From Candidatus Poribacteria bacterium (GTDB lineage: Bacteria > Poribacteria > WGA-4E > WGA-3G), in the NCBI GenBank assembly GCA_963666305.1, contig OY762722.1:5378903-5442902 (forward strand): DNA of 64,000 bases. Direction: 5' to 3'. Numbering within the stretch: position 1 is the stretch's first letter; each line of letters starts with the position of its first letter. Under the pieces are notes generated by a model. That model was not told the origin of the DNA and ran no database searches. It saw nothing but the letters and a program-made list of their open reading frames with translations. Of the stretch, positions 1,723-47,218 are shown one piece after another. The position numbers and the translations under genes are program-made.

Positions 1723-1882
1723 ATGCGTGCAATTGACGCTTTTAAAATGGATAAGGCAACGTTTTCTGTGCTATCCTCTTTTGAAGAAGCGGATGAAACT
1801 GATAAGGCATACTGGCACTCTAAGTCTTTCTTCGACCCGTTTGGAGGCACTCGAATTGATGCGGCAGATTAACTTTCAGTAA
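1723..1882 (+). pseudogene. small conserved hypothetical gene, apparently frameshifted and possibly 3'-truncated at the isrB locus
   Basis: RBS TGGAGG 1711-1716 and ATG 1723. The frame reads MRAIDAFKMDKATFSVLSSFEEADETDKAYWHSKS. The helix-like continuation STRLEALELMRQINFQ* lies in the +1 frame (stop 1880-1882), implying a 1-nt indel within TCTTTCTTC 1825-1833. This could be a sequencing error. Confidence 0.4.
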
Positions 1883-2083
1883 CTCCACACTAAAGCGTGG
1901 AGATTGTTAGAATATCGGTAGCCAGCCGGGACCCTAACAACGTGAGATACTGAATACAGTAATATATCGCGGACCTTGTGGTGGCACACAATAAGATGTT
2001 TCGGATGCTCCCCAAGTCTGATTCCTCTCTGGTGCCGTGATCTGGAAGGGGCAACATATAACCCGAAAGGGAGATTACAAACT
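1883..2083 (+). ncRNA. omegaRNA-like structured RNA candidate upstream of isrB (locus 1)
   Basis: Collinear conserved blocks shared with 40217-40414: TACAGTAATATATCG, TGTGGTGG, GGATnCTCCCC and GATCTGGAAGGGGCAA. Two stems carry compensatory changes: 1883-1902, and 1904-1910 paired with 1934-1940. Exact ends are unknown. Confidence 0.6.
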
Positions 2084-3130
2084 ATGTTTGTGCCTGTAAA
2101 GAGCAAAGACGATAAACACTTAATGCCAACAACACCTGTCCGAGCTGCCATGATGATCAAAAGTGGTGAAGCAACACCTTATTGGAATAACGGCATCTTC
2201 TGTATTAGACTTAACAGGGAACCGTCTGGACGCTACAAGCAAGAGATCGTTGTAGGCGTGGACCCCGGCAGTAAGAAAGAAGGTTTTACGGTTAAAAGTG
2301 CATCACATACTTACTTGAATGTGCAAGCGGATGCACACAATAATGTGGGCAAGAAGGTTGCGAAGCGTCGTGAACTTCGTAGAGTTAGAAGATCGCGTAA
2401 GTGTCCAAATAGAAAGAACCGCATGAATCGAATGGCTAACAAAGCACGCATACCCGCAGGCACACGCGCAAGGTGGGACTGGAAACTTCGTATCCTTGAT
2501 TGGTTGTCTAAGATGTATCCTATCACTCATATCTGTGTGGAGGACATTAAGGCGAGGACGATACAACGCGCACGGCGATGGAATCAGTCATTCAGTCCGC
2601 TTGAAGTCGGCAAAAACTGGTTCTATTCTGAAATAGAAAAGCGTTGGGTTCTTTTCAGGCTTTTGGGTCACAAGACGAAAAAGGCTCGCGACAGATTAGG
2701 TCTGAAGAAGTCGTCTAATAAGCTTGCTGAAACATTTGCTGCATATTGTGTAGATTCCTGGTGTTTAGCATATCACATAGTTGGTGGTGACCGCATAGTA
2801 GACAATACAGGTATTTTCTGTATATCGCCCATAACTATAGAACGGCGCAGTCTACACAGACAACTCCCACAGAAAGGGGGTAGGCGACCGCGGTATGGTG
2901 GCACAAGGTGTCTTGGCTTGGGTAAAGGCACGCTTGTAAAGCATATCAAGCATGGCTTGGCGGTGATATGTGGTAGAATGAACAAATACCTATGTTTACA
3001 ACCTGTAGAAGGTGGTAAACGCATCACCCGATCTGCGAAAGTGTCAGACTGCAAGATATTACGCGGACTTAACTTTAGATATAAACCTGTTGCTATACAT
3101 CAAAAACTACAAAAGGTATTGGTAACCTGA
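2084..3130 (+). CDS. isrB: IsrB-like RNA-guided nickase candidate (IscB homologue lacking HNH; RRXRR/PLMP-RuvC protein)
   Basis: 348 aa from ATG 2084 (MFVPV...). PLMP-type N-terminus (KHLMPTTPVRA), RuvC-I VGVDPGSKKEG, Arg-rich bridge helix KRRELRRVRRSRKCPNRKNR, RuvC-II ITHICVEDIKA, RuvC-III AAYCVDSWCLAYH. No HNH insert. The ORF-track extension to 1976 is non-coding leader. Confidence 0.75.
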   Translation: MFVPVKSKDDKHLMPTTPVRAAMMIKSGEATPYWNNGIFCIRLNREPSGRYKQEIVVGVDPGSKKEGFTVKSASHTYLNVQADAHNNVGKKVAKRRELRRVRRSRKCPNRKNRMNRMANKARIPAGTRARWDWKLRILDWLSKMYPITHICVEDIKARTIQRARRWNQSFSPLEVGKNWFYSEIEKRWVLFRLLGHKTKKARDRLGLKKSSNKLAETFAAYCVDSWCLAYHIVGGDRIVDNTGIFCISPITIERRSLHRQLPQKGGRRPRYGGTRCLGLGKGTLVKHIKHGLAVICGRMNKYLCLQPVEGGKRITRSAKVSDCKILRGLNFRYKPVAIHQKLQKVLVT

Positions 3131-3186
3131 ATGTGATACGAATTGTCCAAAACTTAGTATTTTTAATCTTCATACTGACTTTTTCA

Positions 3187-3215: not shown

Positions 3216-3318
3216 TATTATAACTGAATGTGATGCAGCGGGGTCCAGAGGAGGGTCTTGTTAACTTCACATCACTACTTAACCAACCAATACCCTCGTT
3301 TTTTAGAGGAAAGGAAAA

Positions 3319-18861: not shown

Positions 18862-20784
18862 CTACGGCCAAATTCCATAAGTCGGTATATTAAACACCAT
18901 GCCCAATATTGTCCACAGACTCCCGATGGTAAATTGCCCCAGTATCAACCCCAAGAAAAATGGCATTGCCTTTCGATGGGCATTCCTTCCACCGTATTTT
19001 AGCAGAACCAATTTCAGCAACCACACCACCCCCAGACTAAACCAGATGTAATTGACTGCCCAACTCCCACACACCGTGGCATACGCTGCCGGGTGAAAAG
19101 GGAACCAGAAAAACTTCATCCGCATCAACATAAGGAAAAGCGCGAACAGTAAACCAATTCCGGTAAACCCTACTGCCCAATAGTCCGGGGCAAGCGGGTT
19201 TGTTAACCATTTTTGCAGTTGCGTCCACGGTTCAGATCCGTATATGACCGGGACGCGAGACATTTCATGTAAAGCACCGAGTCGATAGGGTATGGATATA
19301 AGTGCCCAAAATTGCGAAAGAATACCGACGAACAGAGCAATAAGGATCGCAAATAGCATAAAACGGCTCCGGATTCCTGCTGTTGAGGCAAGTTTGAATC
19401 CTTCAAGTTGGTGAGGCATTGGATGGGAATCGAAAGTGCGCGTAAAAAACCAGAAAAAAGAGAACATCGAAAGATTATTCGGTCCCAACCTACGGGTGCC
19501 TACAGCGGCAACCATAACCCGTTCGGGTCCTGTATAGTGCAAATCGTGCATTGGCGATCCGAGTTCGGCTCGCATTCGAGAAACCGCTGTCGAGAAGGCA
19601 AAATAGAGTCCAAAAAAGACAAAAATCGCCCAGACGGACATACCCGCTCTCAAACAGAAAAATGTCAGGAACGCACTGCCAGCGATAAGCGCGAGAACAA
19701 CCGACCAGTTCGACATCGGTTCATCCGGCGTAGACGTGGAACGGACTTTCGCACCGAATAAGTTCTGAAGGTGTTCCCGGCTCCTCCATAAGGCAATTAG
19801 AAAGATGCCCATATAGGCACCAAATCCCTGATAGTTGATGTAAGGATAACCCGTCCCTTCCAAGCCCGCAACGCTTCCGATGACCTGTTGCCCCTTCCAC
19901 ACCCAAAAGAAAAACCAACTCGAAAACAACAGATCCAACGGAATCAGAAACCCAATTCCTAAAACAAACGGATAAATCCCCAATCTCAGCCAACCCATTG
20001 CGGAAAAAGGTTTTTCTGTGAATCTGAAGCGGTATGCTTTCTCGTATACGGAGGGTATCGCAGGAAAGACGTGGTGGAGACCGTTAACGATGTCGAAAGC
20101 CGCTACAAGCCCGAAACCAATCCACATCAGCCGATTCGTGAAAAAGCCGTCGCTTGTCATTCGAGCCGGAAGTTGGATGATCGGATATGCCAGTTTCTCA
20201 TCTTCCGTCCACGGTTTCCGTACAATGACATTGATACAGAGCATAACAAAAAGCAGCGTGAAGAGAAAGGCAAACCAATTGATCACAGGGGTTAGCCAGC
20301 CCAACAGGTGCCGCGTTGTGTACAGCGTAGAATCTCCGTCGTAGTAGCCTGAAAGAACGCCTTTATCCGCTACAGCAAGCCATCCCGGAATATACCGCCA
20401 AAACAGGTCTTTCCAATCGTTCTCTGTCGTTGCGAACCAGAAGGCGTGCCCCAATGTGGAGACCAAAATCTCCATCATGCTGTGTCCCGCAGTGGCGGAT
20501 GCGACAGATAGCATGACATAAATGACCAGAAGTTCACCTTGGGATAGTGCTAACCGAGGCAGGAATCGCTTGAATATCCGGTTGAATCCTATCAACACAA
20601 GCACATTAAAAACAACCGTGAAAATAAGCGAGACGATCGTAGGCTGTGCGGAATATTGGACAAGTTCAATATAGGTAATCCAATAGCAATTGACAGGGAT
20701 AAGAACAAGTCCAATTGCTATAGACCGCCAGCCGACTGATGAGGACGGTTTTGATGAGGATAGGGTCGGTTTCGTGTGCGGCAT
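18862..20784 (-). CDS. 640-aa polytopic membrane protein of unknown function (paralogue of 35769-37691)
   Basis: Many hydrophobic segments. Shares FATTENDWKDLFWRYIPGW / FATPENEWRSLFFQHIPEW, WTEDEKLAYPIIQLP / WVEYEKCTFPLVQLP and the C-terminal KYGG...FLGLILG blocks with the paralogue. Confidence 0.75.
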   Translation of the reverse strand: MPHTKPTLSSSKPSSSVGWRSIAIGLVLIPVNCYWITYIELVQYSAQPTIVSLIFTVVFNVLVLIGFNRIFKRFLPRLALSQGELLVIYVMLSVASATAGHSMMEILVSTLGHAFWFATTENDWKDLFWRYIPGWLAVADKGVLSGYYDGDSTLYTTRHLLGWLTPVINWFAFLFTLLFVMLCINVIVRKPWTEDEKLAYPIIQLPARMTSDGFFTNRLMWIGFGLVAAFDIVNGLHHVFPAIPSVYEKAYRFRFTEKPFSAMGWLRLGIYPFVLGIGFLIPLDLLFSSWFFFWVWKGQQVIGSVAGLEGTGYPYINYQGFGAYMGIFLIALWRSREHLQNLFGAKVRSTSTPDEPMSNWSVVLALIAGSAFLTFFCLRAGMSVWAIFVFFGLYFAFSTAVSRMRAELGSPMHDLHYTGPERVMVAAVGTRRLGPNNLSMFSFFWFFTRTFDSHPMPHQLEGFKLASTAGIRSRFMLFAILIALFVGILSQFWALISIPYRLGALHEMSRVPVIYGSEPWTQLQKWLTNPLAPDYWAVGFTGIGLLFALFLMLMRMKFFWFPFHPAAYATVCGSWAVNYIWFSLGVVWLLKLVLLKYGGRNAHRKAMPFFLGLILGQFTIGSLWTILGMVFNIPTYGIWP

Positions 20785-41478: not shown

Positions 41479-42945
41479 ATGGAGTCGTATCAAGTCAGAG
41501 AAAAAATGGTTGCCGATAAATTGCGACCGAAATACCACTTTTTACCGCCATACGGTCGTTGGAATGACATCAATGGTGCAATCTTCTTCAACCGTAGATA
41601 CCACCTCGGCTACCTACAAAAAATCAGAAATGGTCCCGATGAGAGAGACTTTTCGAGTTGGCAACACATTTCGAGTCGGGATCTGTTGCATTGGACGTAT
41701 CATACTGCGTACCTTGACGAACCACTCGAAGGGAAGAAAGGCGATTATTTCAATAGCGGTGACATCATGGATGGGATGGAAATTCCGACGATTATCACCA
41801 ACATGCCCAGAAGAGGAATCTGTATTTATCAATGCCACGATGCCGATCTCTCACACTGGACACCATTGGCAGAAAATCCAGTGATTCCAATCGATACGGA
41901 CAAATTCCCTGAATGCGTGATCTTCGATCCAAGTGGCTGGAAAGAGGGTGACACCTATTACGCCCTAATCGGCAATAAAAACCATCGTCTCGGCTACGAA
42001 GGCGATTCGACAAGCCTGTTTAAGTCGAAAGACCTCAAGCAGTGGAGTTACATCGGTCCCTTCTATAAATCCTCGCGCAGATGGACAGCAGAGGTTGAAG
42101 ATTGCGCCTGTTCTGACTTCTTCCGCTTTGGGGAGAAATGGATGCTGCTGATGCACACTCATCATCCCTTTAACAAGTGCCAGTATTACATTGGACACTA
42201 TGAAAATGAGACCTTCTATCCCGAAATTAACGGACAACTTAGCCATCGCGGCAGTATACTCTCCGGTCCCGAAACCCTCATTGATGATAAGGGCAGACGC
42301 CTTTTTTGGGGATGGATCGGCGATGCCCGCGACGCAGACCCATATGGCTGGCAGAGCATTATGACGCTGCCGTGGCACATGAAACCAACATCGGATAACC
42401 ATCTGAATATCGAACCGGCTTCAGAATTACAATCCTTGAGATACAATCCATTTCAAGTCGGAGATCTGTTTTTAGAAGCGGGGCAAGAGATCACTGTTGA
42501 CGGGCTTGCTTCGGATTGTATGGAATTGAAACTGACGATAGAACCACATTCCGCGGAGCGATTTGGGTTAAAACTGTTCTGTTCGCCAGATCTTGGGGAA
42601 GAGACGGTGATTCGTTACGATGCGAAACAGCAAGCTTTTGTTGTCGATTTTGAAAATGCGAGTACCGACAAAACGCTTTCATACCGGTGTGGACGTGAGG
42701 TGCTGGAATCTGGACGGTTCAAGCAAACCGTGCCCTTCGCACTCGGAAACGACCAAGCACTTGAACTTGATATTTTCGTTGACAGATCGGTAATTGAAAT
42801 TTTTGTCAACGCTGAGGTGTGCATTGTCCAGCGGGTCTATCCGATGCGTCCCGACAGCAGAGAGGTGCGACTTTTTTGCGAAGATGGGCGGATTGCAGTT
42901 AGAAATATCATCAAATGGGAGATGGACGCAACCAATCCTTGGTAA
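41479..42945 (+). CDS. glycoside hydrolase family 32 (beta-fructofuranosidase/levanase-like)
   Basis: RPKYHFLPPYGRWNDINGAIFFNRRYHLGYLQ corresponds to the GH32 WMNDPNG block, followed by beta-propeller and C-terminal beta-sandwich layout. The start is uncertain (41431, 41479 or 41506). Confidence 0.75.
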   Translation: MESYQVREKMVADKLRPKYHFLPPYGRWNDINGAIFFNRRYHLGYLQKIRNGPDERDFSSWQHISSRDLLHWTYHTAYLDEPLEGKKGDYFNSGDIMDGMEIPTIITNMPRRGICIYQCHDADLSHWTPLAENPVIPIDTDKFPECVIFDPSGWKEGDTYYALIGNKNHRLGYEGDSTSLFKSKDLKQWSYIGPFYKSSRRWTAEVEDCACSDFFRFGEKWMLLMHTHHPFNKCQYYIGHYENETFYPEINGQLSHRGSILSGPETLIDDKGRRLFWGWIGDARDADPYGWQSIMTLPWHMKPTSDNHLNIEPASELQSLRYNPFQVGDLFLEAGQEITVDGLASDCMELKLTIEPHSAERFGLKLFCSPDLGEETVIRYDAKQQAFVVDFENASTDKTLSYRCGREVLESGRFKQTVPFALGNDQALELDIFVDRSVIEIFVNAEVCIVQRVYPMRPDSREVRLFCEDGRIAVRNIIKWEMDATNPW

Positions 42946-45779: not shown

Positions 45780-45960
45780 GAGTTAATGACGGATCCGTCG
45801 ATATACTCTGGTGCGACCTAAAGATGTCTATGCTATCACCGATTATTCGTAGATTTCGCGCTGGAACGGTCAGTCAATGTACCCAAGCTTAAAGACTTGG
45901 GCTTGTTAAAAAACAAGCCTATCGGTCTACCGATAAGTTTCTCGTTTCACAGAGGTTGGC
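45780..45960 (-). ncRNA. TnpB-associated omega/reRNA candidate (3' end of tnpB and downstream)
   Basis: Three consecutive hairpins on the minus strand: TATCGG/CCGATA (45920-45935, spanning the stop codon), GGCTTGTT/AACAAGCC (45900-45919) and CCCAAG/CTTGGG (45882-45901). The extent is inferred from known TnpB biology. Confidence 0.45.
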
Positions 45961-47118
45961 AACCCAACGCTCTCCACGATGGGCGCAAGCCGCCCTGAGA
46001 AGTATGTTTATCGCAGCATTGTGGTCTCGGTCTAACGAAGTGCCACAAGACTGACAATCAAAGGTTCGTATCGCAAGAGAGAGTTTCCTTTGCGATTTCT
46101 CACCACAAGCCGAGCACGTTTGCGAGGTATTCTTAGGATCAACTTGGTGGAAGTGCAAGCCGTCTCTTTCGGCTATGCTCGCACACCACTCAAAGAATGT
46201 CCCCCAAGACGCATCGGCAATGCTTTTGCTGAGGAGTTTGTTCTTTACCATGTTAGATACGCGTAAGTCCTCTGCCACTAAGACATTGTTTTCCTGATGG
46301 TGGTAGAGTTTATAGACGAGTTTGCCGATAAAGTCTTTGCGTTTGTTAGTAGTGCGTTCATGGTGTAAGGCGGTTGCATGCACGGCTTCCCGCCAGCGAT
46401 TGCTCCCTTTTTTCCGGCGCGCCAGGGTCTGATTGTGTTTATGGAGCAAGCCTTCTGCTTTGCGATACCAGCGCGGGTTGTCCTCTGTTTCACCTTCAGA
46501 GGTGGTGAGATAGTGGGTCGTGCCAACGTCAACTGCAACAGCGGCAGTCGGTTCAACTTTCGGCGTATCGGGTATCTCACAGGAGATATGGGCATACCAA
46601 CCTGAGGCTTTCTTGACGATCGTGACTTCTTTCGGGTCACCTTGTAAGGGGCGGTGCATGCGTATCTTGACTTCGCCTAACTTTGGCACTTTTAAGCGGT
46701 TGTGCCTAAAATCGGTGGCTATGATCGGATTTTGGCGGACACGTTGACCTGTTTTGAGGGTGTGCTTTCGCAAGCACCACGTCAGAGAACGGACACGCAT
46801 TTTGAAGCGAGGATACCCTTTTTTTTCAGCACCCTCCTCACAACGTCTACGGAACGCATCAAAGGCTTTGTCAACACGTTTGAGGATAGAAACTTGAAAG
46901 TCTTGAGGCACTTCACGGAAATCGTCATATTTCTCACGAGCAACTTTCAAAAGCTGTTCTTGGTCATATCGCGAAACAAAACGTCCTTCTGCTTCGTGCG
47001 CAAACTTGCGATTGTTACGCGCAGAATTCTGGAGTTCACACAAGTGGGCAAACCACTCTAAGAGTGTTCTTTCTTCTTCCGGCGTTGGATAAATAGGATA
47101 TTTAAATGTTATTCTCAT
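45919..47118 (-). CDS. tnpB: TnpB (IS605 OrfB-family RNA-guided endonuclease)
   Basis: 399 aa. N-terminal MRITFKYPIYPTPEEERTL, RuvC D (VAVDVGTTHY), E (LVAEDLRVSNM), zinc finger CSACG...CQSCG and DRDHNAAINI. Confidence 0.9.
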   Translation of the reverse strand: MRITFKYPIYPTPEEERTLLEWFAHLCELQNSARNNRKFAHEAEGRFVSRYDQEQLLKVAREKYDDFREVPQDFQVSILKRVDKAFDAFRRRCEEGAEKKGYPRFKMRVRSLTWCLRKHTLKTGQRVRQNPIIATDFRHNRLKVPKLGEVKIRMHRPLQGDPKEVTIVKKASGWYAHISCEIPDTPKVEPTAAVAVDVGTTHYLTTSEGETEDNPRWYRKAEGLLHKHNQTLARRKKGSNRWREAVHATALHHERTTNKRKDFIGKLVYKLYHHQENNVLVAEDLRVSNMVKNKLLSKSIADASWGTFFEWCASIAERDGLHFHQVDPKNTSQTCSACGEKSQRKLSLAIRTFDCQSCGTSLDRDHNAAINILLRAACAHRGERWVANLCETRNLSVDR

Positions 47119-47218
47119 GGTATATCAAGTATCAAGCATTTATCCCCTAACGAGTGGGAGGCAAGCACGTCACCCAAGCGGTGACGCTCGTTATGCTGGT
47201 TTCCAACTTGATACTCTA

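Follow-up and report, generated by a model that had tools for sequence, protein, structure and literature searches.

We found that both isrB genes in a 64-kb stretch of Candidatus Poribacteria DNA (the whole stretch analysed, hereafter the window) are preceded, on the same strand, by a region that is very probably the gene for an IsrB omegaRNA. This identification rests on homology and structure: each region starts at a transposon end, its helices and pseudoknots covary, and its architecture matches the published one, all of which bears out the reading of the two regions as omegaRNA scaffolds in a first-pass annotation of this DNA. Present-day activity, above all that of copy A, is a prediction.

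Two IsrB proteins without an HNH domain

The predicted products of the two ORFs are IsrB proteins that share 68% identity. RRXRR (PF14239) was the only Pfam domain of either product, and the Pfam scan found no HNH domain in either protein (348 aa for copy A and 340 aa for copy B). The nearest solved relative was DtIsrB from Desulfovirgula thermocuniculi (8DMB; E 3.9e-37, residues 3-280), after which the next-best solved structures were two IscB proteins. Homologues amounted to 3848 proteins at E<=1e-10, and those with names were from Candidatus Poribacteria. The best 80 loci in GTDB representative genomes all came from Poribacteria, often with many copies per genome, and the element has multiplied there to at least 7 or 8 copies per genome.

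Two observations concern individual loci. In four loci of one genome (L070, L073, L075 and L077 of OZ243938.1), ATC stands in place of the ATG start, at about position 2501, and upstream of it the reading frame has no stop for over 200 nt. A distant isrB locus on a JGI contig (L106, 153-4185 of Ga0209777_10002360) has a tmRNA gene and six tRNA genes around it.

The conserved region begins at a transposon end

The regions upstream of the two copies align collinearly, and every block and stem listed in the first-pass annotation is present in both: TACAGTAATATATCG (1955-1969 and 40288-40302), TGTGGTGG (1977-1984 and 40310-40317), GGATnCTCCCC (2003-2013 and 40334-40344), GATCTGGAAGGGGCAA (2039-2054 and 40371-40386), a first hairpin (1883-1902 and 40217-40237), which is SL1, and a second stem (1904-1910 with 1934-1940, and 40238-40243 with 40269-40274), which is part of SL2. 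What that list overlooked was S1, S3/S4, SL4, SL5, two pseudoknots and two 3' hairpins (Table 1).

We combined 70 homologous upstream regions into a profile, which matched the window at 1875-2104 (nhmmer E 1e-54) and 40209-40435 (8e-58), and covariance-model scores were 204.5 bits for copy A and 215.4 bits for copy B. Neither nhmmer nor an unfiltered run of the covariance model detected a standalone omegaRNA in the window, the sole extra being a partial match, the end hairpin beside tnpB. Exact copies of the 16-mer GATCTGGAAGGGGCAA occur in the window only at 2039 and 40371. Up to 3 mismatches gave 4 window matches, against 0.53 expected; one of these, at 19888 on the minus strand, was considered as a third copy and rejected as a chance match inside a 640-aa membrane-protein ORF.

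The 5' edge of the conserved region is sharp. For seven copies in the Poribacteria chromosome CAXXLX010000001.1, near-identity sets in ~209 nt 5' of the ATG, and the DNA upstream of that point is completely unrelated. In all 78 distinct upstream regions that we aligned, similarity was lost at one common column, which corresponds to positions 1875 and 40209 of the window. A shared start next to unrelated upstream DNA indicates that the conserved region is bounded by the end of a mobile element. By this alignment with relatives, which placed the boundary of both window copies, the predicted scaffold begins exactly at the first base of S1, an end of a non-autonomous IS200/IS605-type element. In TnpA terms, the end that bounds the RNA is the transposon right end (Meers et al. 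preprint). According to the same preprint, tnpA adjoins about 1.5% of iscB genes, and IscB elements tend to be co-oriented with the upstream gene. The upstream neighbour of copy A is a co-oriented MoxR ATPase gene and that of copy B is a divergent gene.

These boundaries revise the first-pass annotation at both ends of the RNA. Because the scaffold starts at S1 rather than at the first hairpin, 8 nt earlier than had been assumed, the guide-equivalent segments shift from 1860-1882 and 40195-40216 to about 1855-1874 and 40189-40208. At the 3' end, 2083 had been taken as the last position, but the RNA goes on beyond it: after SL7, which carries the Shine-Dalgarno sequence, comes a final hairpin over the start codon that extends to 2092 in copy A and 40422 in copy B. 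The predicted scaffold spans as corrected are 1875-2092 and 40209-40422, an RNA of about 205 nt, or 218 nt (copy A) and 214 nt (copy B) counting the last hairpin. For both copies, transcription, RNA ends and guide length are inferred from sequence. Neither guide-equivalent had a further match in the 64-kb window (copy A with up to 3 mismatches), and promoter-like and terminator sites upstream of both copies were no commoner than in shuffled sequence.

Table 1. Predicted features of the two isrB loci in the window
Feature	Position	Strand	Details
Copy A guide-equivalent flank	1855-1874	+	ATTGATGCGGCAGATTAACT; 20 nt outside the element end; predicted from the scaffold start and the 20-nt DtIsrB guide
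Copy A guide adaptor	1875-1954	+	S1, TTCAGTA 1875-1881 paired with TACTGAA 1948-1954; SL1 1883-1902; SL2 1903-1941; covariation in helices 1-4
Copy A SL2, apical helix	1914-1930	+	loop GCCA 1921-1924; covariation
Copy A core	1957-2051	+	S2, CAG 1957-1959 with CTG 2042-2044; S3/S4 1966-1976 with 2030-2041
Copy A SL4	1978-1989	+	loop UGGC 1982-1985 pairs with 1921-1924
Copy A SL5	1998-2024	+	loop CCCC 2010-2013 pairs with GGGG 2048-2051
Copy A 3' hairpins	2062-2092	+	SL7, CCC-GAAA-GGG 2062-2071, over Shine-Dalgarno GGGAG 2069-2073; start-codon hairpin 2076-2092
isrB copy A	2084-3130	+	348 aa; ATG 2084-2086; RuvC-III reads AAYCVDS
Copy B guide-equivalent flank	40189-40208	+	GCAAGCCATGCGTACGTATG; predicted as for copy A
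Copy B guide adaptor	40209-40287	+	S1, GTCAAT 40209-40214 paired with ATTGAC 40282-40287; SL1 40217-40237; SL2 40238-40274
Copy B SL2, apical helix	40247-40263	+	loop 40254-40258; covariation
Copy B core	40290-40383	+	S2 40290-40292 with 40374-40376; S3/S4 40299-40310 with 40362-40373; SL4 about 40311-40322
Copy B SL5	40329-40355	+	loop CCCCU 40341-40345 pairs with AGGGG 40379-40383
Copy B 3' hairpins	40393-40422	+	SL7, CTCC-ATA-GGAG 40393-40403; Shine-Dalgarno GGAG 40400-40403; start-codon hairpin 40408-40422
isrB copy B	40415-41437	+	340 aa; ATG 40415-40417; RuvC motifs GVDPG, CVEDI and DAHCVDS intact
Copy B far end	41427-41471	+	hairpin CCCCATGC-TAAA-GCAAAGCGG 41427-41447, two of the pairs seen in the family are broken; terminal block CCGAAGAATTTGATGA 41456-41471

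Covariation supports eight helices and two pseudoknots

We aligned 70 Poribacteria scaffolds with MAFFT, using no structural information (alignment A3). RNAalifold run on the MAFFT alignment returned only a partial fold of 28 pairs, so the full structure was written by hand, with this partial result, the alignment of copy B to Rfam HEARO and inspection as the starting points, and was tested by pair counts. It consists of an outer S1 around SL1 and SL2, the latter with an apical helix, and then of S2 (CAG/CUG) around a 12-pair S3/S4 with SL4 and SL5, and covariation supported eight nested helices and the two pseudoknots. Across 58 pairs in 9 helices of A3, 89.5% of cells were paired, compared with 31-41% in controls in which the pairing partners were slid by 1-3 columns; pairing percentages are inflated somewhat, both here, where the structure was partly derived from the same sequences, and in a further alignment, A4, which was fitted to the model. 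Changes on both sides occurred in 38 of the 58 pairs. Compensatory cells numbered 419 versus 39-121 in the slid controls, and the covariation score was 0.325 versus at most 0.078 in controls, with none of 500 shuffles reaching the observed values. Single-sequence folding was modestly better than that of shuffles (z -1.9 and -2.1) and, at such values, is uninformative on its own.

Both pseudoknots covary. The first joins the SL2 loop (G/A)CCA to the SL4 loop UGG(C/U), with GC in 39 sequences and AU in 19. The second, between the SL5 loop CUCCCC(A/U) and (A/U)GGGG just after S2, was 97.7% paired, and one of its pairs switches between AU (46 sequences) and UA (17); copy A has an A-A mismatch at the fifth pair of this pseudoknot (2014/2047). 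G-U pairs are frequent, as at columns 141-151 (UG in 69 of 69 sequences) and 102-175 (GU in 46), and since these would be C-A on the opposite strand, the fold belongs to the isrB strand.

Covariation extends to the 3' hairpins. SL7 takes the forms CCC-GNRA-GGG, CUCC-AUA-GGAG, CUC-GAAA-GAG and CUC-UUCG-GAG, each of which overlaps GGAG or GAGG. In the last hairpin, ACAAAC pairs with the codons GUUUGU, with the AUG at the loop, and the subfamily whose proteins start with M-N-F-V has UACGA/UCGUA instead. At the other end of the RNA, 34 of 69 Poribacteria scaffolds have GTTTTC rather than GTTGAC as the 3' strand of S1, giving two mismatches (A3 columns 2-3 with 85-86; for example L006, L008 and L010); these lie beside the element end and may reflect a constraint from TnpA cleavage rather than from the RNA.

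Three loci depart from the common layout. An internal deletion in L026 (about 2440-2500) joins SL1 directly to isrB codon 2, and an insertion of ~40 nt in L035 and L046 (about 2440-2490) forms an extended stem in the SL7 loop.

As an independent set we took 76 metagenome loci that a search with the copy A protein had returned and that had no part in model building; their proteins share 48-78% identity with copy A. R1, the covariance model derived from A3, had a match immediately 5' of isrB, and on its strand, at 66 of these 76 loci. Compensatory changes occurred in 50 of 53 pairs, and the pseudoknots, which lie outside model R1, paired in 79% and 94% of cells and showed more covariation; as this alignment was fitted to the model, its percentages lean towards the model, and the pseudoknot columns were unfitted. 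Covariation, which the first-pass annotation had named as a check on its stems, is present in both the 70 Poribacteria copies and these independent loci.

The same data bear on another explanation raised by that annotation, in which the conservation is due to an N-terminal coding extension of the IsrB ORFs, beginning at TTG 1976 and GTG 40241. An in-frame open stretch does precede the ATG in both window copies (138 and 198 nt), but two of the three conserved blocks inside these stretches are read in different frames between the copies, so that TGTGGTGG would encode WW in one and CGG in the other, and GATCTGGAAGGGGCAA DLEGA and SGRGN. Among homologues, 51 of 79 loci have a stop in the isrB frame no more than 120 nt from the ATG, all three frames are stopped in 73 of 79 scaffolds, and every protein starts with MFVP or MLVP, with a Shine-Dalgarno sequence before it. 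Sequence changes upstream of the ATG are compensatory in RNA helices, not synonymous. With stops, frame differences and compensatory changes all speaking against it, we regard a coding extension as refuted for the family.

The far transposon end and a neighbouring tnpB element

In the family, the far end of the element, 3' of isrB, consists of a CCCC-n-TAAA-n-GGGG hairpin within a longer covarying stem, then CCGAAGA and, a few bases further, (A/G)TGA, mostly as TTGATGA. Copies in the same genome diverge beyond this (A/G)TGA tail, and similar CCCC-n-TAAA-n-GGGG hairpins occur at both ends. In copy B, the terminal block CCGAAGAATTTGATGA has as its TGA-containing tail TTGATGA at 41465-41471, which is likely the TAM. 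The excised site, read on the isrB strand, would be the guide-flank followed by the tail, which would place a TGA-containing TAM 3' of the target, compatible with the published NTG and NTGA TAMs of IsrB.

We found no recognisable far-end hairpin after the copy A stop codon. Simple loss of the end was considered as an explanation for the odd C terminus of copy A and rejected: in its subfamily (L082 and L086) the end hairpin sits 40-90 nt past the stop, and in copy A it is missing. An 11-nt direct repeat, CTGAATGTGAT (3127-3137 and 3224-3234), flanks 86 AT-rich bases after isrB copy A, its first unit overlapping the stop codon. Related elements have a terminal block, C(C/T)GAAGA..TTGAT, that the repeat loosely resembles, and no end hairpin is nearby. 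Downstream of copy B, the listed start of a GH32 glycoside hydrolase ORF (41431) falls inside the end hairpin of the element. The in-frame ATG at 41479, just outside the element, is the more likely start; alternatively, the copy B insertion may have added 16 codons to the ORF.

The window also contains a tnpB gene (45919-47118, minus strand, within 45873-47215) with Pfam OrfB_IS605 and a Cas12f1-like TNB domain. Its 3' flank (45873-45940, plus strand) reads GTCAAT-G-TACCCAAGCTTAAAGACTTGGG-CTTGTT..AACAAG, the end stem and hairpin with which the IsrB scaffold starts, and its far end, TTTCCAACTTGATAC at about 47200, resembles the IsrB far end. The IsrB and tnpB elements thus seem to share ends and, presumably, also a TnpA. 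Common ends of the two element types have reportedly been found in Geobacillus.

Comparison with known guide RNAs

The IsrB omegaRNA has been described as a 20-nt guide and a scaffold made of S1-S4, SL1-SL8 and two pseudoknots (Hirano et al. 2022, PMC9581776). In that description, S1, SL1 and SL2 form the guide adaptor, which at the DNA level matters for IS200/IS605 transposition; the Shine-Dalgarno sequence lies within SL7; NTG, NTGA or TTGA serve as TAMs; and the group A topology has one pseudoknot joining SL2 to SL4 and another joining SL5 to the linker that runs from S2 to SL7 (PMC9581776). The predicted topology of the Poribacteria RNA is that of published group A, with the S1/SL1/SL2 adaptor, the SL2-SL4 and SL5-linker pseudoknots and SL7. 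Like the group A omegaRNAs of CsIsrB, K2IsrB and BbIsrB (PMC9581776), it lies 5' of isrB and has the adaptor, an S2 nexus, S3/S4 with SL4 and SL5, both pseudoknots and an SL7 that bears the Shine-Dalgarno sequence, a likeness judged on architecture and not at the level of sequence. It differs in size (about 205 nt, compared with 262 nt for the DtIsrB scaffold) and in that SL3 and SL6 of the published IsrB omegaRNA are missing from the Poribacteria family. The start-codon hairpin covaries here, whereas the published scheme places SL8 in group B and gives 'no motif' in group A.

This correspondence bears on whether the regions act in cis alone, as transposon-end DNA that forms hairpins for TnpA and as a structured 5' UTR for isrB translation, with no guide RNA acting in trans. 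SL1 resembles the hairpins at the other end of the element and beside tnpB, deletion of SL1 left nicking by DtIsrB unimpaired (PMC9581776), and the Shine-Dalgarno sequence and AUG are covered by SL7 and the last hairpin, as such a role would have it. However, neither TnpA recognition nor a simple translational hairpin needs ~150 nt of helices and two covarying pseudoknots past SL1, and these elements match, one for one, the scaffold in contact with IsrB and the heteroduplex in the solved structure. Roles in cis are also compatible with a guide role and more likely additional to it than an alternative, so that a role in cis only appears very unlikely to us.

HEARO (RF02033), the omegaRNA of IscB, has nearly the same consensus in its 5' domain as the Poribacteria RNA, GUCAAC..CCCC...CUAAAG...GGGGCUUG with a closing GUUGAC, and both have a GGAUGC...AGUC hairpin. 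At gathering thresholds, Rfam gave no match in the whole window, and HEARO (gathering score 83 bits) gave none in 20 loci. Below threshold, HEARO aligned over its full length, starting exactly at the first base of the scaffold, with 34.8 bits for copy B and 33-38 bits for 4 of 11 relatives; for copy A, permissive thresholds yielded noise only. The HEARO-associated ORF has an HNH domain, unlike the IsrB proteins studied here. By these scores, the predicted Poribacteria RNA is a distant relative of HEARO and not a member by the Rfam criterion.

Two other guide RNAs are less similar. The TnpB omegaRNA (reRNA) of IS200/IS605 elements is also encoded by the transposon, overlaps the same end and takes its guide from the flank, and the tnpB element of the window has an end hairpin like that of the IsrB elements; but the TnpB omegaRNA lies at the 3' end of its gene and has a 3' guide, its scaffold is unrelated, and its protein is Cas12-like and of a different family. 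The crRNA:tracrRNA of Cas9 is alike in its 5' guide, nexus-like stem and 3' hairpins and serves a homologous protein (RuvC and bridge helix), but it comes in two parts and derives from a CRISPR array. A large pseudoknotted core is missing, since in Cas9 this part is played by the REC lobe.

State of the two copies and a proposed mechanism

Both window copies look old, judging by their ends and by the copy A protein. Among 202 homologues with a recognisable RuvC-III motif (H-C-V-D-S), 201 have the His, which we take to be the counterpart of the catalytic His in the H-x-x-D motif of Cas9 RuvC; copy A alone has Tyr, and its AAYCVDS codons are at 2741-2761. Copy A is also without a far-end hairpin, the end hairpin of copy B is weakened by its two broken pairs, neither exact protein has a record elsewhere, and the closest relatives of the copy A protein are at most 78% identical to it. 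The window copies could on these grounds be relics, homologous to omegaRNAs but belonging to immobile elements whose system is now inactive. Against this, both ORFs are full length and keep the remaining catalytic motifs, and both RNAs retain all helices. The copy A RNA groups with those of L082, L085 and L086, and its divergent SL1, SL2 and S1 are fully compensated, which indicates that selection has acted on this RNA in the copy A lineage. Loss of mobility alone would not inactivate a nuclease-RNA pair. We therefore consider it rather unlikely that both copies are inactive relics, and we outline below how an IsrB-omegaRNA pair of this kind could act.

Transcription would enter from the flank, possibly in copy A as read-through from the co-oriented MoxR gene, whereas copy B would need a promoter in the 385-nt spacer. 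With transcription entering there, ~20 nt of host DNA beside the element end would become the 5' guide. IsrB would bind the scaffold, pair the guide with DNA lying just before an NTG(A)-type TAM, and nick the non-target strand. As the guide would equal the flank, the natural target would be the empty site left by TnpA excision, and nicking that site could favour re-copying of the element. SL1 and the matching far-end hairpin probably also serve as DNA hairpins for TnpA, and SL7 together with the AUG hairpin probably lets bound IsrB damp its own translation. Given the Tyr and the missing end in copy A, and the broken hairpin pairs in copy B, the window copies themselves may no longer act in this way.

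Exapted repressors derived from TnpB have been described. A comparable fate for copy A, in which an immobilised IsrB with Tyr in place of the RuvC-III His, a fully compensated omegaRNA and a fixed guide (1855-1874) would make up an RNA-guided DNA binder or regulator rather than a nickase, is conceivable and in our estimate quite improbable.

The understanding of OMEGA systems is unchanged by these regions, as the RNA is of an already known class. They add a compact (~205-nt scaffold), well-supported IsrB omegaRNA family from the sponge-symbiont Candidatus Poribacteria, for which we have defined the exact element boundary, along with both pseudoknots and a secondary structure backed by covariation. 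This definition is useful for annotation because the only related model in Rfam misses the family at its gathering score, and the family offers a candidate small nickase-RNA pair.
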